Below, piece after piece: positions 1,544 through 24,620 of a DNA stretch of 64,000 nt (position 1 is the first letter of the stretch; each line of letters opens with the position of its first letter). The position numbers and the translations under genes are program-made. The notes under the pieces are model-generated. The model was not told the DNA's origin. It did no database searches and saw only the letters and a list, made by a program, of their open reading frames with translations. The stretch covers positions 1,306 through 65,305 of the forward strand of contig MGHG01000007.1 in the NCBI GenBank assembly GCA_001793095.1, given 5' to 3'. The DNA is from Candidatus Woesebacteria bacterium RIFCSPLOWO2_01_FULL_39_23. Lineage in GTDB: Bacteria > Patescibacteriota > Microgenomatia > UBA8517.

Positions 1544-2191
1544 TCAGTTATAAGGGGCAAGTCGTGCTCTTACCACAAGCCTTCTCGGTTTTCTTGGATC
1601 TCCAGGAGGAACACAGGTAATTAGGCTAATGTAGGATCCATCGCTATTCTGCTCTAGAACTTGGATATCTTTTGGCAGCACCTCAAACTTTGTTTCAACA
1701 ACGTATTTGTAGGTAATTCCATCGTAGTTAACAATTATCTCGTCTCCTTCTTGGAATTTTGGCAGTGTCGAAAAAATTGTTTTGTAGTTTGTTGGACTGA
1801 AAAAGAGGGGTAAAGCAGAGTGACCGAATATTACACTGTTACCTGTTTTTCCAGGAACTGCAGTTCCTGGATAGTGAATAAGCGATTTTGCCAGGTCTTC
1901 GCCTCCGATAGTAACTGTTGCCGACTCAACACCCAGTTTTGGAATAGACATTGTGTAATATTTCACTTCTGTGGAGGTAAAATCTTCTTCTCTTGCACCC
2001 CCTTCAAACCAAGAACTCGCTTTAGTAGTTGCAGCTTTTGAATTAAAAGAATCATCATCTACTAATGGTGAAATAAGTGTAGGCGGAGCGGTCAACTCGT
2101 AAGAAATTATTGGAAAAACGGTAGCGAAAAGTATTGTTGAGCCTGATATAAAATTTATAGCGGCAAGAATTCGTTTAACAGTCTTACTCAT
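1544..2191 (-). CDS. Sortase family transpeptidase
   Basis: N-terminal TM anchor, a conserved His (IFGHSALP) and the catalytic TLITC motif (SLITCVPPG) followed by Arg. Confidence 0.75.
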   Translation of the reverse strand: MSKTVKRILAAINFISGSTILFATVFPIISYELTAPPTLISPLVDDDSFNSKAATTKASSWFEGGAREEDFTSTEVKYYTMSIPKLGVESATVTIGGEDLAKSLIHYPGTAVPGKTGNSVIFGHSALPLFFSPTNYKTIFSTLPKFQEGDEIIVNYDGITYKYVVETKFEVLPKDIQVLEQNSDGSYISLITCVPPGDPRKPRRLVVRARLAPYN

Positions 2192-2238
2192 TAACTACCA
2201 CTTTAATGAGTGATGAGTTAAGAAGTTATGAAGACAAA

Positions 2239-2439
2239 CTATTTTTGTAAAGCTTCAGCTTGTTTAGGTGGACATTTTATATCTGCATAAGAGCAAAATA
2301 CGCAACAATCGCCTTCTTTTGGTTTTAGCATTTCTCCACAATGAATACACTTATAAAAATGCTGGCAGGCATCAGTAGGCATCGTGGCTTCCTGCTTTTT
2401 CCCACATTTGGGACAAGTTAATATTGCTTCAGTTTTCAT
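2239..2439 (-). CDS. GDCCVxC-type Cys-rich zinc-ribbon mini-protein
   Basis: CPKCG...C..HFYKCIHCG...KEGDCCVFCSYADIKCPP. The GDCCVFCSY motif is typical of small metal-resistance-locus proteins. Confidence 0.7.
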   Translation of the reverse strand: MKTEAILTCPKCGKKQEATMPTDACQHFYKCIHCGEMLKPKEGDCCVFCSYADIKCPPKQAEALQK

Positions 2440-2457
2440 ATTGTGTCCTTACCTCTC

Positions 2458-2580
2458 TTATTTCTCTTCTTTACTTTCCTCCGGTACTAAATCCATTCCA
2501 CACTTCGGACAACTTCCTGGTTTATCCGACTTAACTTCCGGGTGCATTGGACATGTATATTTTTGTTTCTTTTCCTCCAC
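2458..2580 (-). CDS. 40-aa heavy-metal-binding-domain (CPMHPEV...CPxCGM) mini-protein
   Basis: Hand translation [43 protein letters not shown] start with GGAGGTGA 6 nt upstream. This is the CPMHP HMBD motif seen at the N-termini of CopA/CusB-type proteins. It is not in the ORF track. Confidence 0.6.
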
Positions 2581-2616
2581 AGGCTATCACCTCCTTTAAC
2601 CAAACTTTGTCGTTCA

Positions 2617-3033
2617 TTAATACCCCCAATCTTTTTGCCACTCCCGCATCATTTCAATCTCATCAGTTTGGGCGGCAATAATATCATCGGCCATTTGTTT
2701 GATCTCATCGTGCAAGGCAGCTGTTTTAGCTTGTTGGGCCATATCTATTGCCCCTTGATGGTGAACAATCATTGCTTCCATAAAGGCTTTATCAAAATCA
2801 TCACCCGTTTTGCCTTCCATAGACTCCATCATTTCCTCCATACTTGATGCTGTTCCCATCATCATTGATCCAACCGTATCTTCTTCTTGCTCAATCATAT
2901 TAAATCTTGCATTCATTCCCATCATCCGCATCATACCTGTGTTGTTGGCATTAACAGCATTTGAAGCAAAGAGCATTGTCAAAACAATCCCTGATAATAA
3001 ACCTATGATTCCATAAAGATATTCTTTTTGCAA
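2617..3033 (-). CDS. DUF305-family Met/His-rich metal-binding protein (CopM-like), membrane-anchored
   Basis: N-terminal TM, many Met runs (MMRMMGM, SMMMGTASSMEEMMESMEG) and the DUF305 helix motifs AFMEAMIVHHQGAIDMA and DEIEMMREW. Confidence 0.75.
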   Translation of the reverse strand: MQKEYLYGIIGLLSGIVLTMLFASNAVNANNTGMMRMMGMNARFNMIEQEEDTVGSMMMGTASSMEEMMESMEGKTGDDFDKAFMEAMIVHHQGAIDMAQQAKTAALHDEIKQMADDIIAAQTDEIEMMREWQKDWGY

Positions 3034-3069
3034 AAAATTTCACCTCCTTTCAAAAAACTTTGTTTAATT

Positions 3070-3591
3070 TTACTTTCCTTCAATGAATTGCACTAAGGCA
3101 TTTTTGTCAAGGTTATCAAATGTCTGAATTTTTCCCATCCTTGTTATCGCAATCTTTTTACTCATGTTTGAAAAAGGTGCAACATATACAAACTCGGAAT
3201 ATTTGTTTGCAATTTCTGCAAGTTTTTCTTTAAGACCGGGTTCGCATTCAAAGTCCTCGCAGTTGTAATTGATAATCACTCCAGGAGGTCCTTTTCCATC
3301 CGAATGCTCCAGCATGTGCTTTTGGACGGATAGGGACATTGGTTCATCCATAACGTGCGATGAGGGATTTTGTTCTATATGACCGGCCATGTCAGTAGGA
3401 GGTAAAATTTCTCTGTTTGTTGACCAATAATAAATGCCACCAATAAGGAGTACTGCAATAATTAAATCAATACTCCAATTACGAATTCTACCTATTAAAC
3501 TACTTTTTGATACATCTTGCGCTTTCAATGCTCTTATTTTTTTCTTGCGTTCTCTTTTTGGTAGTTCATTCCATTCTTCTGGATATTCCAT
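3070..3591 (-). CDS. Membrane-anchored extracytoplasmic protein with a His/Met-rich stretch and an NCEDFEC Cys pair (DUF3105-like)
   Basis: Lys-rich N-terminus, one TM, then HIEQNPSSHVMDEPM...KHMLEH and NYNCEDFECEP. The family assignment is tentative. Confidence 0.55.
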   Translation of the reverse strand: MEYPEEWNELPKRERKKKIRALKAQDVSKSSLIGRIRNWSIDLIIAVLLIGGIYYWSTNREILPPTDMAGHIEQNPSSHVMDEPMSLSVQKHMLEHSDGKGPPGVIINYNCEDFECEPGLKEKLAEIANKYSEFVYVAPFSNMSKKIAITRMGKIQTFDNLDKNALVQFIEGK

Positions 3592-3594
3592 ACT

Positions 3595-4116
3595 TCACCT
3601 CCTTCTACTTATTTTTATATTACATATTCCTAGAACCCTTTTAGACGTGTAGTAAAGCGTTAAAAGCATAATGATAATTGAAAGTAAGAGTATCATTTGT
3701 CTGTATTTCAGCAAAAGCAACACCCCTCCCAAACCTAAAAATCCAAAAATAGATCCCACACAGGAAGCGCAAGACGCAGTGGGACCAAAAATTGAACCCA
3801 ACATTCCAGACAAAGTACTAAAACTACTACGTCCAACTGTTGCTGTACTTAGAGAATTTTTTAACTCATTTCTAATAACAAAAATATTCATTGTTAAAGA
3901 GAGGGAGGTAAGGCTAGAGAGTAAGACAAGTAAAAACCAATCTTTCAGAGTAAAAATGGAAATTTGAAAAGAAAAAGTATTACCTGGAATTTGCCTGACA
4001 GGAATATAAATAAAAAACCAAAGAGCTAGAATTGACAAAGCAAAGAAGGTGATCAAAAAAATTTTCTCTTTAAAAACATTTTTCACCGCAAGAATAACCA
4101 ATTGAATATAATGCAT
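3595..4116 (-). CDS. Polytopic membrane protein with an intramembrane CASC (CxxC) motif
   Basis: Four or five hydrophobic segments and GPTASCASCVGSIFGFLGLGG. It sits 6 nt downstream of the DsbA-like gene. It is not recognisably DsbB or VKOR. Confidence 0.55.
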   Translation of the reverse strand: MHYIQLVILAVKNVFKEKIFLITFFALSILALWFFIYIPVRQIPGNTFSFQISIFTLKDWFLLVLLSSLTSLSLTMNIFVIRNELKNSLSTATVGRSSFSTLSGMLGSIFGPTASCASCVGSIFGFLGLGGVLLLLKYRQMILLLSIIIMLLTLYYTSKRVLGICNIKISRRR

Positions 4117-4122
4117 GTTTTA

Positions 4123-4905
4123 TCATGATTCTTTGAGCATGTTGTCTATCTCCGTTTTAAAGTTTTCGAATGGTAATGCTCCGGGAATTAATTTAGTTTT
4201 GCCTGTTTTTGTATCAAGCAGTATATTTCCGGGTGTTCCTGTTACACCGGCTTTTGCACCACTTTGGAAATCGCTTTCTACATGAGCTGCCGTCTTGCCA
4301 CTATCAAGACACGTCTTGAACGCACTTTGATTAAGGCCGACCTCACCTGCCAATTTGGGTAAATCATCCAGGTTCAAACCGTTATTGGAAGGGGTAACCT
4401 CAAAGATTTTATCGGTCAATTTCCAGAAACCATCATTACCCGCCAGTTCATATGCACACTCGGTAGCCTCAGCCTCTTTATCTGCTTTTTGATGGATTTG
4501 GTCTAATGGAAAATGCCTATAAACCCAAGCAACCTGACCTTTATATTCATCAACTATTTGTTTAGCAGTTGGATGAAATCTCTTGCAGAATGGGCATTCC
4601 AAGTCTGAATATTCAATTAGAAGCATCCTTGCATTCTTATCGCCTCTTACATGATCGTCGTTTCTCAACTTATCAACTTGGTCAGCATTACCGAAGGAAG
4701 GCTGAACTCCTCCTGCAGCTGGTTGTCCTCCTTGAGCACCTCCGGCGGCTCCAGCTTGTGTTCCGGCGATACGTGTGGTTCCACCACCTTCCAAGTTTTT
4801 GACTTTCTGCCAAAGCATTCCTACTGCAAAAGCAAGTCCAATTGACGCAACAAGAAGAATTGGAACTAATTTTTCAAGAAGATTACTCTTAGACTTTAAT
4901 ATCAT
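4123..4905 (-). CDS. DsbA-like thiol:disulfide oxidoreductase (thioredoxin fold, CPFC active site), membrane-anchored
   Basis: LIEYSDLECPFCKRFHP, with an N-terminal TM and a Gly/Ala/Gln-rich linker. The track start at 4932 is TTG. The ATG at 4905 (MILKSKSN...) is the more likely start. Confidence 0.8.
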   Translation of the reverse strand: MILKSKSNLLEKLVPILLVASIGLAFAVGMLWQKVKNLEGGGTTRIAGTQAGAAGGAQGGQPAAGGVQPSFGNADQVDKLRNDDHVRGDKNARMLLIEYSDLECPFCKRFHPTAKQIVDEYKGQVAWVYRHFPLDQIHQKADKEAEATECAYELAGNDGFWKLTDKIFEVTPSNNGLNLDDLPKLAGEVGLNQSAFKTCLDSGKTAAHVESDFQSGAKAGVTGTPGNILLDTKTGKTKLIPGALPFENFKTEIDNMLKES

Positions 4906-4912
4906 AGATATA

Positions 4913-4925
4913 CTACGAAGTGTAG
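4913..4925 (-). promoter_or_regulatory. Candidate BlaI/CopY-type operator copy (CTACGAAGTGTAG) just upstream of the dsbA-like start
   Basis: Same 13-mer (1 mismatch) as at 6250..6262. In both places TTCGTAGTATAT precedes the ATG on the coding strand. Confidence 0.45.
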
Positions 4926-4960
4926 TAGACAATAGTAAAGGTTGTCAATAAGTAAAAGGG

Positions 4961-5911
4961 TTAGTCAACGTTATTATTAAAAGAGGCGAATGTTGACTGA
5001 AATGCGGGGGTAATGTAAGAGCTTTGGTTAATATTATTTGTTGGGCAGTGTGTAGAACAGAGGTTATCCTCACAATTTGAAAGGTCTGAATTACCCATCG
5101 CCTGAATAGTATGAGTATCTCCTGGAAACTTGAAAAGGAAAAGACCAGCTAGAATGATTACCACAAAAACTAAAAAGTTAATCCTTTTGATTTTGTAGTC
5201 GGTTCTTCTTGAAAAGTTTGGGTAAATTTTGAAACGATTTTGAGAACTTACCGTTTCAAGTGCTAAATTCAGATGTCTTGTGGTCTTTTGTTGATTAGAA
5301 ACAAAAAGATCTGCTTCCTTCTCTAATACAGTTCTCATTTTCCTTGTTAAATCTCTTAAAACAGGCAGCATTAGTAGTGATGAAGATAAAATTTCCCCGA
5401 CAATAAGTAATAGTGGATGTCGATTTTTTAAATGGTAATATTCATGAAGTGTTACTGCTTCAAGCTGATTCTGATTTAGTTTTTCTATTAAGCTGGTCGA
5501 AATAACTATTTTTGGTGAAAACCAATCTATTGTAAAAGCATAAACATCTACCTCTTCTACAATAATAATTAAATCTTTTCGGATACCGTTTCTTTCTAGA
5601 ATAAATTTAAGTTTTTGAGGTAAAGAATAAATTTGTTTTTGCAAAAGTACCTCTAATTTTCTTTTTGTTTTAATACATGAAAGTAAAGTTTTTAGAAATA
5701 GTCCTAATGTAATCATTAAAACAATAGCTGTGAGAATAAATCCTACATAATGGGCTCCGGTTGAGAAAAAGCTCGAAGCAATAACTTTGCAAGTCTCTCG
5801 GAAATGTTCGAAGGTTAGACCCGAGTATCTTTTAAAGAGAGTAAAAAGAGAAACAACTGAGAAAGTAAAAACTAACAAAATGCTTAGGAAATAACTTATT
5901 TCTTTTTTCAT
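4961..5911 (-). CDS. BlaR1/MecR1-type M56 zinc metallopeptidase with a short Cys-rich extracytoplasmic tail instead of a penicillin-binding sensor domain
   Basis: Three N-terminal TMs, HEXXH (TLHEYYHLKNRHP), a later TM, then a roughly 50-aa tail containing NCEDNLCSTHCP. Confidence 0.8.
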   Translation of the reverse strand: MKKEISYFLSILLVFTFSVVSLFTLFKRYSGLTFEHFRETCKVIASSFFSTGAHYVGFILTAIVLMITLGLFLKTLLSCIKTKRKLEVLLQKQIYSLPQKLKFILERNGIRKDLIIIVEEVDVYAFTIDWFSPKIVISTSLIEKLNQNQLEAVTLHEYYHLKNRHPLLLIVGEILSSSLLMLPVLRDLTRKMRTVLEKEADLFVSNQQKTTRHLNLALETVSSQNRFKIYPNFSRRTDYKIKRINFLVFVVIILAGLFLFKFPGDTHTIQAMGNSDLSNCEDNLCSTHCPTNNINQSSYITPAFQSTFASFNNNVD

Positions 5912-5919
5912 ACAATCTC

Positions 5920-6246
5920 TTACTTGTGTCGTTTAAGTTCATCTGTAAATGCAGTTACCGCTTCGTGTCCGTATTGGTCAACTAAAGAGTTAACAATTTT
6001 TTTAACTATCCCTTTTGCGGTTTGCTCTTTGGTTTTTTTAGGTGAATATACATATGCCTTACCTTCCATCTTTCTTGCTAAAAAGCCTTTCTCGGTCAAA
6101 CGTGTCATTATTGTCATTACTGTTGTATAAGCAATTTTGCGTTCCTTTTGAAGACATTGATGGATATCCGAAACTGAAGCATTTTTCTCTTTCCACAGAC
6201 AATCCATTACTTCTTGCTCAAGCGGTCCTAAGTTATAGCTAGTCAT
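5920..6246 (-). CDS. BlaI/MecI/CopY-family winged-helix transcriptional repressor
   Basis: 108 aa. YTTVMTIMTRLTEKGFLARKMEGKAYVYSP winged helix, 8 nt upstream of the M56 gene. There is no C-terminal CxC metal motif. Confidence 0.85.
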   Translation of the reverse strand: MTSYNLGPLEQEVMDCLWKEKNASVSDIHQCLQKERKIAYTTVMTIMTRLTEKGFLARKMEGKAYVYSPKKTKEQTAKGIVKKIVNSLVDQYGHEAVTAFTDELKRHK

Positions 6247-6249
6247 ATA

Positions 6250-6262
6250 CTACGAATTGTAG
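6250..6262 (-). promoter_or_regulatory. Candidate BlaI/CopY-type operator copy (CTACGAATTGTAG), 4 nt upstream of the blaI-like ATG
   Basis: TAC-N-GTA dyad ends reminiscent of cop/bla boxes (TACAnnTGTA). It is duplicated at 4913. Confidence 0.45.
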
Positions 6263-6290
6263 GAGATTTAGAAGAAACTATCAATACCAT

Positions 6291-6884
6291 TCAGTAACTA
6301 ATCAGTCGTATTAAAAAAGGTACTATTCTAATAGTCGGCAACTTATAGTTATAGGCAACTTTGTAGTAGATACTTGTGTATTTGTTTACTTGATCGATTA
6401 GTTTTGTCTCAAATTCCTTATCATTCTCAATTATACTTAAGGAATTTCCAGCTACTCTTTCGATCGCTGGATAAAGCAACTGCTTTTGATAATCTTCCGC
6501 CGCAGTAGAATATTGGTCTAGTTTTTCACCTGAAAGTTTCGACAGCTCACTTTCGATTTCCAGATAAATTTTTATGGATGATGGAAGTCTTCTATATGGA
6601 GAGTCTGGTTCTATATTAAACAGGACAAGATCTCTAGCTTGTTTATATTCAAAAACCAAAACATTTGACAACTTTTTGATTACCTTTACCGATTTCTTGC
6701 CTTTGTATTTTTGGTTGTAAGTGGCATCTCCCTGATAGGAATAAATCAAACCGATAATACAGATAAGCTTACCTTTATTTTTCTTAAATCCGAAAAGGTC
6801 GAAAAACTTCTTGAAACTTATTCCCAACTTAAAGCGAGGGTTGAACCGATGTCCTACGTTGCAGCACAAAAGAAGCTCAAACAA
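6291..6884 (-). CDS. Hypothetical protein
   Basis: 197-aa ORF with no recognisable motifs. It overlaps small opposite-strand ORFs, so its start is uncertain. Confidence 0.35.
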   Translation of the reverse strand: MFELLLCCNVGHRFNPRFKLGISFKKFFDLFGFKKNKGKLICIIGLIYSYQGDATYNQKYKGKKSVKVIKKLSNVLVFEYKQARDLVLFNIEPDSPYRRLPSSIKIYLEIESELSKLSGEKLDQYSTAAEDYQKQLLYPAIERVAGNSLSIIENDKEFETKLIDQVNKYTSIYYKVAYNYKLPTIRIVPFLIRLISY

Positions 6885-6912
6885 ATGCTTTATTTATCGG
6901 GTAAAAAATAAA

Positions 6913-7092
6913 ATGCAACTATCCAAAGAGGCTATAGACGAATTCGTGGTAATCTGGAAAAAGGAGTATGGTAAATCAATAAGCGAAACTCTGGCTACGG
7001 TTTATGCCAATAAACTAATCAACCTTTTTACTGCTATTTACAGACCAATAACAAATGTGAATAAAATAAATCTTGAAGAAGATAAGGGTTAG
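6913..7092 (+). CDS. Hypothetical 59-aa protein upstream of the recombinase (possible accessory or directionality factor)
   Basis: ATG at 6913 (MQLSKEAIDEFVVIWKKEYGKSI...). Position only. Confidence 0.3.
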   Translation: MQLSKEAIDEFVVIWKKEYGKSISETLATVYANKLINLFTAIYRPITNVNKINLEEDKG

Positions 7093-7106
7093 ATATATGA
7101 TTATAT

Positions 7107-7186
7107 TGAACTCAAAAATACCTTTCGGCTTTTTTAATGGCCGTCTCAGACAAGTCCGAAAGGGTTTGAGTTCAACTGGGACGGCC
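7107..7186. other. Nested imperfect palindrome, a candidate recombinase att/recombination site
   Basis: ttgaactcaaa (7107-17) pairs with tttgagttcaa (7164-74). cctttcgg (7121-28) pairs with ccgaaagg (7156-63). ggccgtc (7139-45) pairs with gacggcc (7180-86). It lies 10-90 nt upstream of the recombinase start. Confidence 0.45.
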
Positions 7187-7195
7187 ATTTAAGTT

Positions 7196-8887
7196 ATGGA
7201 AAACAAACTAATATACGTCCAGTATTCAAGAAAATCATCAGAGTCTAGAGAAAAACAGGCATTATCTATTGATGAACAAAAAGAAGAGTGTGTAAAACTT
7301 GAAAAATTATTGGACTTGAACATCCCCTACAAATTAGAAGAATCCCGTTCCGCATACAAACCAGATAATAGACCTGAATTTGATAAGCTGATTTCATTAA
7401 TAGAAGCTGGAAAAGTAAATGCCATACTAACCTGGAAGCCTGATAGGCTTTGCCGTAATCCAAAAGAAGGTGGTTATTTACTCCAATTACTACAAGGTGG
7501 TGTCTTAAAAGAGATTCGGTGTGCTGATGGTGAAACTTATACTCAAGATTCAGACCATTTAATACTCCAAATTCATTTTGGCATGGCAAACCAATACTCA
7601 AGAAATTTAAGCAAGAATGTAAAACGCGGGAACAGCTATAAGTTCTTAAATAACAAACAATGGCTTGGTCCCGCTAAACCAGGGTACTTGAATGCTCAAG
7701 AAGGTAAAGATAAGACAATAGTTGTCGATGAAGAACGTTATCCGATAATTGAAAAGGCTATTAGGTTGATTCTCTCTGGAACTCATACTCCGATGGAAGC
7801 TCTAAATGTGTTGAATAAAAAATTTGGATATAGGAGTCGGAAAACAAAATGCCAAGGTGGTAAACCAATGCATAAAAGTGGTTGGTATCGCTATCTGAGT
7901 GACCCGTATCTTTATGGTTTAATGAAGAGGAAAGAAGGAGAAGTTATGGGTGATTTCAAACCGATGTTATCTAAACCAGAATTTGACAGGTTGCAAATTA
8001 GGTTGGGTAGAAGAGGCACCAGAATTTCCAAGCACGAGATACCCTATCGAGATGTGCTCAAGTGTGGAAGCTGCGGTGGCACTGTATGTGGTGACGATAA
8101 ATGGCAAGTATATTGTCCTGCCTGTAAGGAGAAGTTTCATAAGGGGAAGAATACAACCGAATGTAAATACTGCCACACTCCAATTGAACGGATGAAAAAT
8201 CCTACAATCCTTCATTACGTTTATCTGTTCTGTACAAAAAATAAAAACCCGAATTGTACTCAAAAGATAATCTCGGTTAAAGATTTTGAGAAACTTGTTG
8301 ATGATGAGCTCCTAAAGTTTACAATTCCAGATTCTTTTCGTGATTGGGCTATCAAACACCTGAATAATTGCAACACGAAAGAGGTGGGAGATAGAGAAAT
8401 TGTCAGAACAAACCTAAAAACTGCTTATGATGACTGTGTAAAAAAGCTAGATAGCTTACTTAGTCTCAAAATCAGCCCACAGAATATCGATGGTTCGGTA
8501 ATATCTGATGAAGAGTACAACACCAAACGAAAAACGCTCCTTGATGAAAAGACCAGTCTACTGGAACAGATAAATGGAGTAGATAAGAGGCAGAATGATT
8601 GGATGGAATTATCCGAAAGAACCTTTGATTTTGCAGTTTACGCACGGCATTGGTTGGAACATGGAGACGCTAAACAAAAAAGCTCAATTCTTGCAGCTCT
8701 CGGTTCGAACATAAGGATAATGGACAAGAAACTGCTGATAACACGGCATAAACAGTATTTCTTAATAGAAAAAGGGGTAGGAGAAATTAAACAATTAGCA
8801 AGACAATTCGAACCTGGTAAAACACCCGTATTATCGGAGCATTTACTCTCTTTTGAGCCTATTCGTTCTGCTTGGCTGGGAGACTAG
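7196..8887 (+). mobile_element. Large serine recombinase (resolvase/invertase catalytic domain, recombinase domain, zinc ribbon)
   Basis: N-terminal YVQYSRKSSESREKQALSIDEQ with catalytic Ser, then the TWKPDRLCRN region, then Cys clusters (CGSCGG...C..C, C.YC...C). 563 aa. Confidence 0.9.
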
Positions 8888-8947: not shown

Positions 8948-9017
8948 TACAAAACTCTGATTAAATTCGATCTTTTAGGAATCTACGCCCGAAGCCTGTT
9001 TTAAAATATTTTTCTCT
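8929..9017. repeat. Direct repeat copy 1: the last 18 codons of the GIY-YIG gene, an intergenic spacer and the first 19 nt of tRNA-Gln
   Basis: About 80% identical to 9283..9371. Seen by eye alignment. Confidence 0.7.
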
Positions 9018-9197
9018 TTTGATTGCTTTATTCTTATCTAAACAAGCTTCATAATAAACCAATTTGATTGGCAACCGAAATTTAGTTGAACTAACTAGTC
9101 CTAATTTGTGTTTATTTACTCTTTTCTCAAGATCATTACTCCATCCAACATAGCGTTTACCATCTCTTTTACTTAACAGCACATAAGTATAATACAT
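8961..9197 (-). CDS. GIY-YIG nuclease-family small protein (YhbQ/UPF0213-like)
   Basis: MYYTYVLLSKRDGKRYVGWSNDLEKRVNKH...LVYYE...KREKYFK, the classic GIY-YIG core. 78 aa. Confidence 0.8.
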   Translation of the reverse strand: MYYTYVLLSKRDGKRYVGWSNDLEKRVNKHKLGLVSSTKFRLPIKLVYYEACLDKNKAIKREKYFKTGFGRRFLKDRI

Positions 9198-9399: not shown

Positions 9400-10050
9400 T
9401 TACATCGAGGCTTCGAGTTCCAAGTTGGTCAAATTTTTTACTATAAATTTTTGACTTTTCCGAAAGATTAACCCTTTGCTTTGTAGTTTTTCTATGGAGA
9501 TACTTGCAGTTTCTCGTGTAATACCCGCCAAATTTGCGATATCCTGATGCGTAAGGGGAATATCAATGAGAACATTTTTATTTTTGAAACTCTTCCCGAA
9601 TCTTTTAGCAGAAACTATAAATGCTGAGGCGACCCGTTTATATGCGTTACCGTAAAGTAGCTGTTGGGTAGTTGATAAAAGTCCATCCATGCCGACCAAA
9701 AGGCGCCTAGTCAAATCATACAAAACATCCGGGTTGTCGTTGATGAATTTTAGTGCATCTCCTCTTGTGGCTTTAAAAACTTCAGTTGAAGTCATAGCCT
9801 GATAAAAGTAAGCATTATCCGAATCAGCGATTGCCCATAACATTGGGAAGAATGCACCTTGTTTAAAAATATTAACAGTCAGCTCTGACCCGTTTTCGAA
9901 AATAGACGCCATTTTTACGTAGCCGTTTATCATATAAAAAACTCCAGGCGGTTCTTCCTCGGCTCTTATCAATATTTCACCTCGTTTATATGACTGAAGA
10001 ACGTGTTTAGAGAAAAAACCCAGTAATTTTTGATTAATATCTTTATCCAT
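9400..10050 (-). CDS. Crp/Fnr-family transcriptional regulator (cNMP-binding domain plus HTH)
   Basis: 216 aa. C-terminal HTH LTHQDIANLAGITRETASISIEKL with an N-terminal beta-roll. Confidence 0.85.
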   Translation of the reverse strand: MDKDINQKLLGFFSKHVLQSYKRGEILIRAEEEPPGVFYMINGYVKMASIFENGSELTVNIFKQGAFFPMLWAIADSDNAYFYQAMTSTEVFKATRGDALKFINDNPDVLYDLTRRLLVGMDGLLSTTQQLLYGNAYKRVASAFIVSAKRFGKSFKNKNVLIDIPLTHQDIANLAGITRETASISIEKLQSKGLIFRKSQKFIVKNLTNLELEASM

Positions 10051-24404: not shown

Positions 24405-24620
24405 TTGTTTAAAGAATGTATGGCATTTAATATATTGAAGAAAAAGCAAAATTCCCAAAAAGCTACTGAAGGTAGTAGGAGCGTTATTATCCTAAGAGAC
24501 GAATATGGTACGATTATTTCTAAGAGAGAATTAAAACCAGGTGATTTAATTGATGGAGAACTCGTTGCTAAAGGGTTACAGCAAGGTATTAGTGTTATTA
24601 TTAAGGAAAGAGGTAAATAA
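24405..24620 (+). CDS. Hypothetical small protein
   Basis: 71-aa ORF that abuts serS. No motifs. Confidence 0.35.
   Translation: MFKECMAFNILKKKQNSQKATEGSRSVIILRDEYGTIISKRELKPGDLIDGELVAKGLQQGISVIIKERGK

Follow-up and report, generated by a model that had tools for sequence, protein, structure and literature searches.

There is a precedent for a BlaI-like repressor that is removed by proteolysis when copper is present. In Synechocystis sp. PCC 6803, the BlaI-like repressor PetR is degraded in a copper-dependent manner by PetP, a sensor-less M48/M56 protease (bioRxiv 10.1101/2020.07.31.226407; commentary PMC7896320). The site of PetR, GACN5GTC or in its extended form GACA-N3-TGTC, lies inside promoters (bioRxiv 10.1101/2020.07.31.226407). 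The BlaR1 homologue of Mycobacterium tuberculosis is likewise without a sensor domain, and what such a sensor-less homologue senses has been noted as open (PMC9834060). The cop/bla box has been defined experimentally as KACANNTGTA, with two bases (N2) between ACA and TGT (PMC7253601). The scs operon of Salmonella is induced by copper, and control of Scs lies with the two-component system CpxRA (PMC10907172; PMC5524982).

The locus described here lies within a copper/heavy-metal island of an uncultured Woesebacteria genome and was analysed in a stretch of DNA of 64 kb, referred to below as the window. By analogy, the copper-sensing PetR/PetP pair is the closest counterpart of the putative regulatory system found at this locus. 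The neighbours encoded in the window include a CopM-like protein, a GDCCVxC protein, a CopR/SilR-like response regulator (637-1314) and a Crp-like protein (9400-10050). The genes concerned are the following:

5920 to 6246, minus strand: BlaI/MecI-family winged-helix repressor of 108 aa (PF03965, Penicillinase_R, E = 1.5e-27)
4961 to 5911, minus strand: BlaR1-like M48/M56 membrane zinc protease of 316 aa (Pfam M48 and alignment to BlaR1 8EXS)
4123 to 4905, minus strand: DsbA/ScsC-like membrane-anchored thioredoxin-fold protein of 260 aa, counted from ATG 4905, with the active site CPFC
3595 to 4116, minus strand: membrane protein of 173 aa whose hydrophobic segment includes a CxxC (CASC); gene closely coupled to dsbA on its downstream side, gene order conserved
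3070 to 3591, minus strand: DUF3105-like protein of 173 aa (weak PF11303 match, E = 6e-4)

The repressor belongs to the BlaI/MecI family, with a match to PF03965 over residues 6-104 at 96.6 bits (gathering score 22.6). Its nearest solved structure is 2G9W, followed by MecI and BlaI. The chain ends in ...TAFTDELKRHK, its sole cysteines (C16 and C31) are both in the DNA-binding domain, and neither a CxCx4CxC nor a CxC metal motif is present at the C-terminus. Assignment as CopY proper was rejected on the missing C-terminal Cys motif and on the score against CopY_TcrY (NCBIfam TIGR02698), which at 61.3 bits is under the equivalog cut-off of 121.95.

The protease gene begins 8 nt past the blaI stop. 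The protein scores 35.3 bits against Pfam M48 (gathering score 20.3) and 23.7 bits against M56 PF05569, which is below the gathering score of 31. Residues 63-209 align with residues 111-254 of BlaR1 8EXS (E = 7e-8), and its LHEYYHLKNRH and EKEADLFV segments, a gluzincin core that follows a membrane helix and is invariant in orthologues, align with LHEYAHAKNR and EVEADRFV of 8EXS. A penicillin-binding sensor domain was not matched in Pfam or NCBIfam, and the chain ends 50 residues past the last membrane helix. Beta-lactam sensing was rejected on the lack of this domain and of a beta-lactamase gene in any relative examined. By the hydropathy profile and the orthologue alignment, three invariant cysteines (C280, C285 and C289) are located in the tail past the last membrane helix, H36 and C41 are invariant in the outer loop and H54 is at the loop edge; a conserved Met pair is absent from the alignment. 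C280, C285, C289, H36 and C41 are all placed on the predicted outer face. In homologues from CPR lineages, the cysteines predicted to face outward are arranged as a C-x4/5-C-x3-C tail accompanied by a Cys/His loop, and Bacillota-type proteins have a terminal Cys.

The DsbA-like protein has a DsbA/ScsC thioredoxin fold with a CxxC active site, as in an Scs-like module. It matches Thioredoxin_4 (E = 2.9e-21) and DSBA (E = 1.7e-14), and its PDB matches include 4N30 and the ScsC-type structures 6NEN, 6MHH, 4XVW and 4GXZ (E = 3e-10 to 1e-6 for the ScsC type). The 173-aa CxxC membrane protein has no match in Pfam or NCBIfam; a DsbD_TM protein stands in its place in two relatives, L087 and L091. The DUF3105-like gene, which has a DUF3105 counterpart at the equivalent position in L085, L087 and L089, is probably the third gene of the dsbA transcription unit.

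The two copies of the dyad and their predicted promoters

The initial annotation had pointed to one 13-nt motif adjoining the starts of both the blaI-like and the dsbA-like gene, in near-identical surroundings. Both copies proved exact. On the plus strand the motif reads CTACGAAGTGTAG at 4913-4925 and CTACGAATTGTAG at 6250-6262, and on the coding (minus) strand CTACACTTCGTAG and CTACAATTCGTAG, respectively, with the common string TTCGTAGTATAT(CT)ATG at the two places. The gap between the 13-mer and the start codon is 7 nt for ATG 4905 (dsbA-like) and 3 nt for ATG 6246 (blaI-like). The exact sequence CTACGAAKTGTAG occurs twice in the window and in none of 100 dinucleotide-preserving shuffles. 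Looser patterns are at chance level, with 2 matches against 1.9 expected when up to two mismatches are allowed and 11 against 8.8 for the bare TAC-N5-GTA, so the signal sits in the full 13-17-mer and not in its three-base ends. A weight matrix was built from 17 sites of relatives only, with the window sequence excluded, and its two best matches in the window (32.8 and 30.9 bits) are these sites; the third-best match scored 10.3 bits and the top score across 20 shuffled windows was 19.4 bits. Two further candidates were dropped for falling under this shuffled maximum, namely CTAC-N5-GTAG at 24463 (2.5 bits) and the 10.3-bit match at 5394-5414 within the protease gene.

The entire element is a 17-bp dyad, TACTAC-N5-GTAGTA, which extends the 13-nt motif on both sides. 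In the form TACTAC(A)-N3-(T/C)GTAGTA it overlaps the -10 of the predicted promoter of the repressor's own operon; operators of the BlaI/MecI/CopY family likewise overlap the promoter of their own operon. The predicted operators and promoters are as follows:

6248 to 6264, minus strand: predicted operator 1, 17-bp dyad TCCTACAATTCGTAGTA with the 13-nt core at 6250-6262, matrix score 30.9 bits; outer left arm imperfect, dyad end 1 nt from the blaI-like ATG
4911 to 4927, minus strand: predicted operator 2, perfect 6+6 dyad TACTACACTTCGTAGTA with the 13-nt core at 4913-4925, matrix score 32.8 bits; dyad end 5 nt from the dsbA-like ATG
6256 to 6284, minus strand: predicted sigma-70-type promoter of the blaI-protease operon, -35 TTGATA (6279-6284), 17-nt spacer, -10 TACAAT (6256-6261)
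4919 to 4948, minus strand: predicted promoter of the dsbA operon, -35 TTGACA (4943-4948), 18-nt spacer, -10 TACACT (4919-4924)

The two promoters are the joint best sigma-70-type matches in a scan of 2000-7300, at 10/12 each, and at both sites the -10 hexamer falls within the left arm of the dyad. Part of the conservation of the motif is thus promoter function and not repressor binding. The blaI transcript is predicted to start at about 6247-6251, with a leader of 1-5 nt. Only 4 of the 37 genes in the window have a Shine-Dalgarno-like sequence and many have a TATAAT-like box directly ahead of the ATG; the rarity of Shine-Dalgarno sequences indicates that leaders are probably very short, which would explain why the motif adjoins the ATG. 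The choice of ATG 4905 over TTG 4932 as the dsbA-like start was upheld, because 6 of 7 orthologues have no in-frame start codon upstream and the N-termini of orthologues align from the position of ATG 4905, while TTG 4932 sits between the -35 and -10 of the predicted promoter and was ruled out. On sequence grounds, the dsbA start is ATG 4905.

As the arms of the dyad are able to pair (6 bp at dsbA, 4 bp at blaI), it could also be read as an RNA hairpin at the transcript 5' end or in read-through RNA, acting on stability or translation. This was rejected as extremely improbable, since folding energies of -5.2 (dsbA) and -2.4 (blaI) kcal/mol are no better than those of shuffles (z = -1.1 and -0.4). 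In addition, the arms are kept as sequence, with no compensatory changes in relatives, and the left arm lies ahead of the predicted transcription start, which means that it would be missing from promoter-proximal transcripts.

Occurrence of the dyad in relatives and in other phyla

Close relatives were found by exact protein look-up, which gave 7 independent relatives with repressor identities of 65-91%. Both sites are present in all 7, while their flanks diverge, and phylogenetic footprinting shows invariance at the -35 and at the dyad only. The blaI-proximal site has the form [TA][CA]CTACAAT..GTAGTA in relatives, in which TACAAT and the TTG of the -35 are kept. The dsbA-proximal site, TACTACACTYTGTAGTAT, is near-invariant in 7/7 relatives, and its -35 TTGACA is invariant across all eight aligned sequences. 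The suggested second transcription unit starting at dsbA is supported by this site and a perfect TTGACA 17-18 nt upstream of it, both of which are kept in every relative. The dsbA-proximal site was found again by a motif-first metagenome scan. Adjacency of blaI and the protease gene is seen in all close relatives examined, and additional operator copies stand ahead of a multicopper oxidase gene in L085 and of a gene for an HMA-DsbD_2-cupredoxin protein in L105.

The association extends well beyond these relatives. Across 80 distant loci, 94 sites were found against 1.2 expected from composition. The protease gene is adjacent to blaI in 75 of these loci, a site is upstream of blaI in 37/80 and just past the protease gene in 33/71, and 24 loci have both. 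This layout, with one site ahead of blaI and a second past the protease gene, is common to many phyla, and there the second site stands ahead of thiol-disulfide or copper genes; third genes include those for DsbD, DsbD_2-cupredoxin, GILT-like, FtrD-like and MerB proteins. The motif-first metagenome scan backs the linkage of motif and BlaI as an enrichment only: a BlaI-family ORF was found on 15 of 120 stretches (13 of the 15 with an adjoining protease gene); among the 21 stretches that reach 2.5 kb or further in each direction, 4 have such an ORF. About 105 of the 120 exact-match stretches have no BlaI gene, many of them being short contigs or chance matches. A literature search, which cannot prove absence, found no prior description of the cassette in Patescibacteria.

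It could be argued that the shared sequence is a duplicated promoter core only (-10, discriminator and start region) that serves RNA polymerase and leaderless translation, with no repressor involved. The -10 hexamers TACAAT and TACACT inside the motif, the weight matrix, which is orientation-specific with reverse-strand scores of only 5-6 bits, and the start-codon context of the window genes given above would all fit such a core. It is nevertheless improbable. The right arm, GTAGTA, mirrors the left one exactly as its reverse complement and is as strongly conserved as the -10, although promoters need no such arm; the sequence occurs at no other promoter-like site in the window; in phyla with long Shine-Dalgarno leaders the dyad is still 20-54 nt upstream of blaI; and it specifically accompanies BlaI-family genes.

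The metal-responsive and Crp-type regulators encoded in the window raise the possibility that the dyad is bound by one of them, such as the CopR/SilR-like response regulator or the Crp-like protein. Typical sites of OmpR-family response regulators are direct repeats, not inverted ones like this dyad. From phylum to phylum, the motif goes with the blaI-protease pair, whereas the regulators encoded nearby change or are missing, and the half-site fits the BlaI/CopY family consensus (PMC7253601). Binding by such a neighbour is judged very improbable, more so than a bare promoter core.

Taken together, the motif is very probably the DNA site of the neighbouring BlaI-type repressor, lying over two predicted promoters, that of the repressor's operon and that of the DsbA operon, as far as can be judged from sequence. 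The operator reading of the initial annotation is strengthened by the presence of the dyad upstream of blaI homologues in close relatives and in many phyla. The likeness to BlaI/MecI/CopY boxes that it had drawn also holds, in that the half-site agrees with KACA/TGTM (PMC7253601), with a centre that is one base longer (N3 instead of N2). Its overall interpretation is thus supported by the comparative evidence, with refinements: the element is a 17-bp dyad with an N3 centre and the -10 inside, and the repressor is not CopY proper.

Putative mechanism and signal

The best explanation of the locus as a whole, with a probability of about 0.8, is a BlaI-family operator at two promoters that is relieved by the protease, with copper, a thiophilic metal or a thiol signal as the most likely trigger. 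A repressor dimer would occupy the dyad, and because at both places the -10 and the position where transcription is predicted to start are overlapped by the dyad, bound repressor would block RNA polymerase. Operator 1 would provide autoregulation of the repressor-protease operon, and operator 2 would control the unit of dsbA-like, CxxC membrane protein and DUF3105 genes. At the dsbA site the palindrome is perfect, while at the blaI site the outer part of the left arm consistently departs from it; this points to autoregulation that is leakier and to a tighter hold on the effector operon. Derepression would most likely follow the logic of BlaI/BlaR1 and PetR/PetP, in which the membrane zinc protease, activated from outside the cell, would cut the repressor near Ala99-Phe100. 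The invariant Phe100 lines up in a profile alignment with Phe102 of 1SD4, which occupies P1' where S. aureus BlaI is cleaved (PMC9834060), and the residue at the candidate P1 position is Ala99, where S. aureus BlaI has Asn. Copper, a different thiophilic metal or the damage done to thiols by such metals is the most likely activating signal, and the Cys and His residues of the protease that are invariant and predicted to face outward are the candidate sensor. Copper is proposed as the signal on the basis of genomic association only.

The same operator could instead respond to a shortage of envelope disulfide-forming capacity. DsbA would then act on the Cys-rich tail of the protease as a substrate, and proteolysis of the repressor would be gated by whether the tail is oxidised. 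This would give a homeostatic feedback on DsbA, loosely comparable to the way in which NlpE, a Cys-rich sensor, signals to Cpx. In most lineages the genes under control encode thiol-disulfide oxidoreductases, the invariant cysteines and histidine on the predicted outer face and the terminal Cys of Bacillota-type homologues could serve such a role, and a Cys-rich sensor of envelope redox stress is known (PMC10907172). Copper is favoured by genes directly concerned with copper behind the operator in relatives, namely those for a multicopper oxidase and an HMA-cupredoxin protein, by the placement of the locus in a copper/heavy-metal island, and by the copper response of the sole experimentally studied sensor-less homologue. 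The two signals are mutually compatible, since copper itself mis-oxidises thiols. A disulfide shortage in place of copper is considered unlikely, although far less so than the alternatives to a BlaI operator weighed above.

Tentatively, and at less than even odds, it is proposed that the locus is one example of a widespread, undescribed class of sensor-less BlaR1-like proteases that would sense copper, other thiophilic metals or thiol-oxidation stress via outward cysteines. By way of a BlaI-like repressor and a fixed layout of two operators, they would in many phyla switch on genes for envelope disulfide repair and for copper. If true, the question of what sensor-less BlaR1 homologues respond to would gain an answer that can be tested. 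The two-operator cassette before disulfide-exchange and copper genes across phyla hints that protease-coupled BlaI is a general switch for envelope metal and thiol stress, beyond antibiotic resistance, an idea that extends the single experimental precedent of PetR/PetP in cyanobacteria.

The element itself is a well-supported prediction of a fairly ordinary kind of regulatory element. For an uncultured member of the CPR bacteria, among which, to our knowledge, hardly any transcription-factor binding sites are known, it offers a concrete regulatory circuit that can be tested. The data also suggest that promoters here are set directly against start codons, so that pipelines expecting Shine-Dalgarno leaders could misplace starts.

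Comparison with known systems

The locus shares with ScsB/ScsC a predicted output that consists of a DsbA-like thioredoxin-fold protein and a putative membrane redox partner among copper genes. Its predicted control is by a BlaI/protease pair instead of CpxRA, and the candidate membrane partner is the uncharacterised 173-aa CxxC protein, not ScsB. With CopY/CopR and the cop box it shares the family of the DNA-binding domain, the KACA/TGTM half-site and copper-related targets (PMC7253601; PMC11672702). It differs from them in the N3 centre of the dyad, in the missing C-terminal metal site and in the score under the CopY_TcrY cut-off; moreover, sensing here is presumably by the protease, whereas the CopY/CopR repressor binds metal itself.

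Like BlaI/BlaR1 and MecI/MecR1 of S. aureus, the system has a winged-helix repressor, a predicted autoregulated operon, a dyad overlapping the promoter and an adjoining gluzincin protease with HExxH...ExxEAD (PMC9834060). As in S. aureus BlaI, which is cleaved at Asn101-Phe102 within its C-terminal dimerisation helix (PMC9834060), Phe is found at the candidate P1' position, with Ala in place of Asn at the candidate P1. Unlike in those systems, the protease carries no penicillin-binding sensor domain, neither a beta-lactamase nor PBP2a is among the targets, the operator has one extra central base, and there is a single dyad per promoter instead of paired dyads. M. tuberculosis BlaI (Rv1846c, 2G9W), the nearest solved structure (family-profile E = 1.3e-18), has the recognition helix AYTTVM in common with the repressor described here. 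In the 2009 work of Sala et al., the targets of M. tuberculosis BlaI were reportedly the beta-lactamase and others, which differ from the dsbA-type targets at this locus.

The likeness to PetR/PetP is the closest. Both have a BlaI-family repressor paired with an M48/M56 membrane protease without a beta-lactam sensor domain (predicted to be co-transcribed here), an inverted repeat with five central bases within promoters, and a link to copper, which here is one of genomic association. The half-site is TAC(TAC) here and GAC in PetR/PetP, and the targets are DsbA/DsbD-type and copper-resistance genes instead of those for plastocyanin and cytochrome c6 (petE/petJ). The candidate sensing residues are the Cys/His of the first outer loop and the three-Cys tail, in contrast to the Met pair that is conserved in PetP in the outer loop ahead of its protease domain. 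PetR also activates a promoter, of which there is no sign here, and the predicted role of the BlaI-type repressor at both operators is repression.

The dyad and the genes around it

The initial annotation described a 13-nt motif repeated on the minus strand and abutting the ATG codons of a blaI-like and a dsbA-like gene, and the coordinates of both copies are borne out:

4913-4925: 13-mer at the dsbA-like gene, CTACGAAGTGTAG on the plus strand and CTACACTTCGTAG on the minus strand, ending 7 nt from ATG 4905
6250-6262: 13-mer at the blaI-like gene, CTACGAATTGTAG on the plus strand and CTACAATTCGTAG on the minus strand, ending 3 nt from ATG 6246

A scan of the 64 kb window returned only these two matches to the exact degenerate 13-mer, and none in 100 dinucleotide-preserving shuffles. 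Two looser versions occurred at chance level in the window, so the bare three-base ends by themselves carry no signal. Extension of the alignment revealed a 17-bp dyad at both places, perfect at the dsbA site (TACTAC-N5-GTAGTA) and imperfect in the outer left arm at the blaI site (TCCTAC-N5-GTAGTA). A 21-column weight matrix built from 17 sites of relatives only scored the window sites at 32.8 and 30.9 bits, against 10.3 for the next match and a shuffled maximum of 19.4, which leaves exactly two sites in the window. An RNA hairpin formed by the dyad is a poor alternative: the predicted folds are weak (z = -1.1 and -0.4), and compensatory changes are absent from the arms.

The locus genes around the motifs all lie on the minus strand, and the best protein matches assign the window to Candidatus Woesebacteria. 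The genes are as follows:

637-1314, minus: CopR/SilR-like response regulator, downstream of the dsbA unit
2239-2439, minus: Cys-rich GDCCVxC-domain protein, 66 aa, downstream of the dsbA unit
2617-3033, minus: CopM-like DUF305 protein, downstream of the dsbA unit
after the 173-aa membrane protein gene, minus: DUF3105 gene, weak match
3595-4116, minus: CxxC membrane protein after the DsbA-like gene, 173 aa, CASC in a hydrophobic segment
4123-4905, minus: DsbA-like gene after the protease gene, Thioredoxin_4/DSBA
4961-5911, minus: membrane HExxH protease, 316 aa, next after the repressor gene; M48 above and M56 below threshold
5920-6246, minus: repressor, 108 aa, Penicillinase_R (PF03965) winged helix, E = 1.5e-27
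6291-6884, minus: ORF upstream of blaI, 197 aa, no family match
7196-8887, plus: serine-recombinase (Resolvase) N-terminal domain protein, 563 aa, just upstream of the metal gene cluster
8961-9197, minus: small GIY-YIG protein, just upstream of the metal gene cluster

The GDCCVxC, CopM-like DUF305 and CopR/SilR-type genes mark the region as a heavy-metal island. The 173-aa CASC protein, without a match in Pfam or NCBIfam, could be a redox partner, so far unrecognised, for the DsbA-like protein. The repressor-protease-dsbA cassette may lie on a mobile or recombining island.

Predicted promoters and leaders, and the dsbA start codon

A consensus scan over 2000-7300 found promoter-like sites at roughly the frequency of shuffled sequence; the top two matches (10/12 each) fall exactly on the two motifs:

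6284..6256, minus: predicted blaI promoter, TTGATA-17-TACAAT
4948..4919, minus: predicted dsbA promoter, TTGACA-18-TACACT

At both, the left arm of the dyad encloses the -10 hexamer. A promoter element without any repressor could account for this overlap, but the conserved symmetric right arm is not needed for a promoter. With transcription starting about 7 nt downstream of the -10, leaders would measure about 1-5 nt (blaI) and 5-9 nt (dsbA). Shine-Dalgarno-like sequences occur within 20 nt upstream of only 4 of the 37 window ORFs of at least 200 aa, and many long ORFs carry a TATAAT-like box 5-12 nt ahead of the start codon, which suggests that leaderless or very-short-leader mRNAs are the norm in this genome. 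The motif thus probably abuts the ATG because promoters here sit against start codons and the operator overlaps the -10. Only 5 nt separate the end of the 197-aa ORF from the blaI -35 hexamer, and the 44-nt gap between it and blaI is nearly all promoter and operator.

The preference of the initial annotation for ATG 4905 over TTG 4932 holds. The TTG falls between the predicted -35 and -10 of the dsbA promoter. In six of seven DsbA-like orthologues the reading frame is closed by a stop 9-42 nt before the conserved ATG, and the stretch between the two offers no other start. The orthologue N-termini line up from that ATG (M..K.K..LLEKLVPILLVASIGLAFAVGMLWQK). The start codon is ATG 4905.

Conservation of the two sites

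Exact-protein look-up gave seven independent close-relative loci (repressor identity 65-91%). All seven keep both sites and the gene order repressor, protease, DsbA-like, membrane protein and DUF3105-position gene; the membrane protein is of the 172-180-aa type, or DsbD_TM in L087 and L091. In the window the gene for the 173-aa CASC protein directly follows dsbA, a place kept in relatives and taken in some by the DsbD_TM protein. Neighbouring genes include multicopper oxidase, CopC/cupredoxin, HMA P-type ATPase, DUF305 and CsoR-like genes, and those upstream of blaI vary by locus (Lon protease, DUF305, histidine kinase). Apart from the -35 and the dyad, no part of the aligned upstream regions is invariant. 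The blaI site reads [TA][CA]CTACAAT..GTAGTA, then ATG; the dsbA site reads TTGACA, 17-18 nt, TACTACACTYTGTAGTAT, with ATG 2-12 nt on. The asymmetry is systematic: all seven blaI sites deviate from the perfect dyad in the outer left arm (by one base in six, by two in L090), and six of the seven dsbA sites are perfect palindromes. Extra operator copies precede a multicopper oxidase gene in L085, the gene after DsbD_TM in L091 and, in the closest named relative (L081, 7294-7879), a 190-aa gene of no family match between the protease gene and dsbA; this last copy is perfect, runs directly into the ATG (TACTACATTATGTAGTATG) and has its own TTGACT -35. In L087 (5930-6000) a 54-nt insert holding a near-repeat (GCAAAGCTTTGC ... 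GCTAAGCTTTGC) parts the blaI operator from the called ATG, unlike the ATG-abutting layout elsewhere.

The distant sample comprised 80 loci among the matches listed for the repressor alignment (36-68% identity), from Patescibacteria, Chloroflexota, Actinomycetota, Bacillota, Gemmatimonadota, Acidobacteriota and others. When up to one mismatch to TACTAC-N5-GTAGTA is tolerated, these listed loci hold 94 sites, where base composition alone predicts 1.2. A site lies within 170 nt upstream of blaI in 37 of the 80 and just after the adjacent HExxH protease gene in 33 of the 71 with enough sequence; 24 have both. What is encoded behind the second site varies: a DsbA-like protein in CPR lineages, DsbD_N/DsbD_TM/thioredoxin in Longimicrobium, an FtrD-like, Cys-rich PF10080 domain in Bacillota and Actinomycetes, and further DsbD_2-cupredoxin, a GILT/thioredoxin-like protein, MerB, MacB/FtsX or proteins of no family. 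The dyad stands -1 to 9 nt from the start in CPR; where mRNAs have Shine-Dalgarno leaders it lies 20-54 nt upstream. A promoter-only element would not be expected to persist away from the start codon, yet the dyad does in other phyla. Binding by a regulator other than the BlaI-like repressor is unlikely, since the motif tracks the blaI-protease pair while neighbouring regulators vary. At locus L002 (4923-4990) blaI is preceded by two tandem operators, TACTACATTTTGTAGTA and TACTATAATCTGTAGTA, spaced 51 nt apart, an arrangement reminiscent of the dyad pairs in classical bla/mec and cop operators.

A motif-first scan of metagenome contigs for exact TACTACANNNTGTAGTA returned 120 stretches (701 kb). 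Fifteen carry a BlaI-family ORF, 13 of them with an adjoining protease gene; there the motif follows the protease gene, mostly with TTGACA 17-19 nt upstream. Eight loci have the motif ahead of a gene BLAST-matched to the window DsbA-like protein; another stretch (L127) resembles them but is too truncated for scoring, and in L105 the motif precedes an HMA-DsbD_2-cupredoxin protein. About 105 stretches have no BlaI gene, but many are short and a 14-base pattern has chance matches in a large collection, so the motif-BlaI linkage is one of enrichment, not exclusivity.

Proposed mechanism and comparison with known systems

Conservation, promoter overlap and blaI-protease linkage support, at the level of sequence, the earlier interpretation of the motif as an operator for autoregulation and for a second unit starting at dsbA. 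A repressor dimer would bind the dyad at each promoter, covering the -10 together with the point where transcription begins. A candidate outward-facing Cys/His module of the protease would sense copper, a different thiophilic metal or the thiol damage that follows; a pure disulfide-shortage signal instead of copper is a serious alternative. Under the proposed mechanism the protease would then cut the repressor near Ala99-Phe100 and both promoters would fire, the weaker blaI site letting the sensor pair be expressed at a basal level and the perfect site at dsbA keeping the effectors under tight control. Such two-operator cassettes with Cys-bearing, sensor-less proteases across many phyla might repay experiments.

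The system is a new, uncharacterised member of the BlaI/BlaR1 kind, similar to the PetR/PetP repressor-protease pair of Synechocystis, with an envelope disulfide and copper module as its predicted output. The DsbA-like active site is CPFC, and ScsC-type copper-resistance proteins are among its solved-structure matches. The Salmonella Scs DsbA/DsbD-like system is copper-induced via CpxRA (PMC10907172).

The protease aligns with BlaR1 (8EXS, E = 7e-8) across membrane helix, HExxH and ExxEAD; it has no sensor domain and ends 50 residues past the last membrane helix. In this tail C280, C285 and C289 are invariant among orthologues. The orthologues also share H36, C41 and H54, which lie within or border the loop that leads into the helix aligned with BlaR1 111 onwards. 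By homology with BlaR1 and PetP, tail and loop probably face outward. The loop corresponding to that of H36/C41 touches the sensor domain in BlaR1 (PMC9834060) and is the site of a proposed copper-binding Met pair in PetP (bioRxiv 10.1101/2020.07.31.226407). More distant CPR homologues keep C-x4/5-C-x3-C. Bacillota-type proteases (L023, L027, L028, L033, L036, L053, L057, L059, L060, L062, L076) terminate in a lone Cys that immediately follows the final membrane helix, and their second operator usually precedes the gene of an FtrD-like (PF10080) Cys-rich membrane protein. Limnocylindria-type Chloroflexota homologues have neither tail Cys nor TACTAC sites.

The nearest solved relatives of the repressor are 2G9W (M. 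tuberculosis Rv1846c), MecI and BlaI; 2G9W shares its recognition-helix sequence AYTTVM. The repressor is not a CopY in the strict sense: a Cys motif at the C-terminus is missing, and its CopY_TcrY score of 61 bits is below the 122-bit cut-off. Its family-invariant Phe100 (..EAVTAF-TDEL..) aligns by profile with Phe102 of S. aureus BlaI, which occupies P1' at the Asn101-Phe102 cleavage site (PMC9834060); P1 here is Ala, not Asn. The canonical BlaI/MecI/CopY site is KACANNTGTA, extended RNYKACANNTGTMRNY (PMC7253601). The window operator keeps this half-site but has three central bases, one more than the classical box, a spacing geometry identical to that of the PetR site GACA-N3-TGTC (bioRxiv 10.1101/2020.07.31.226407).
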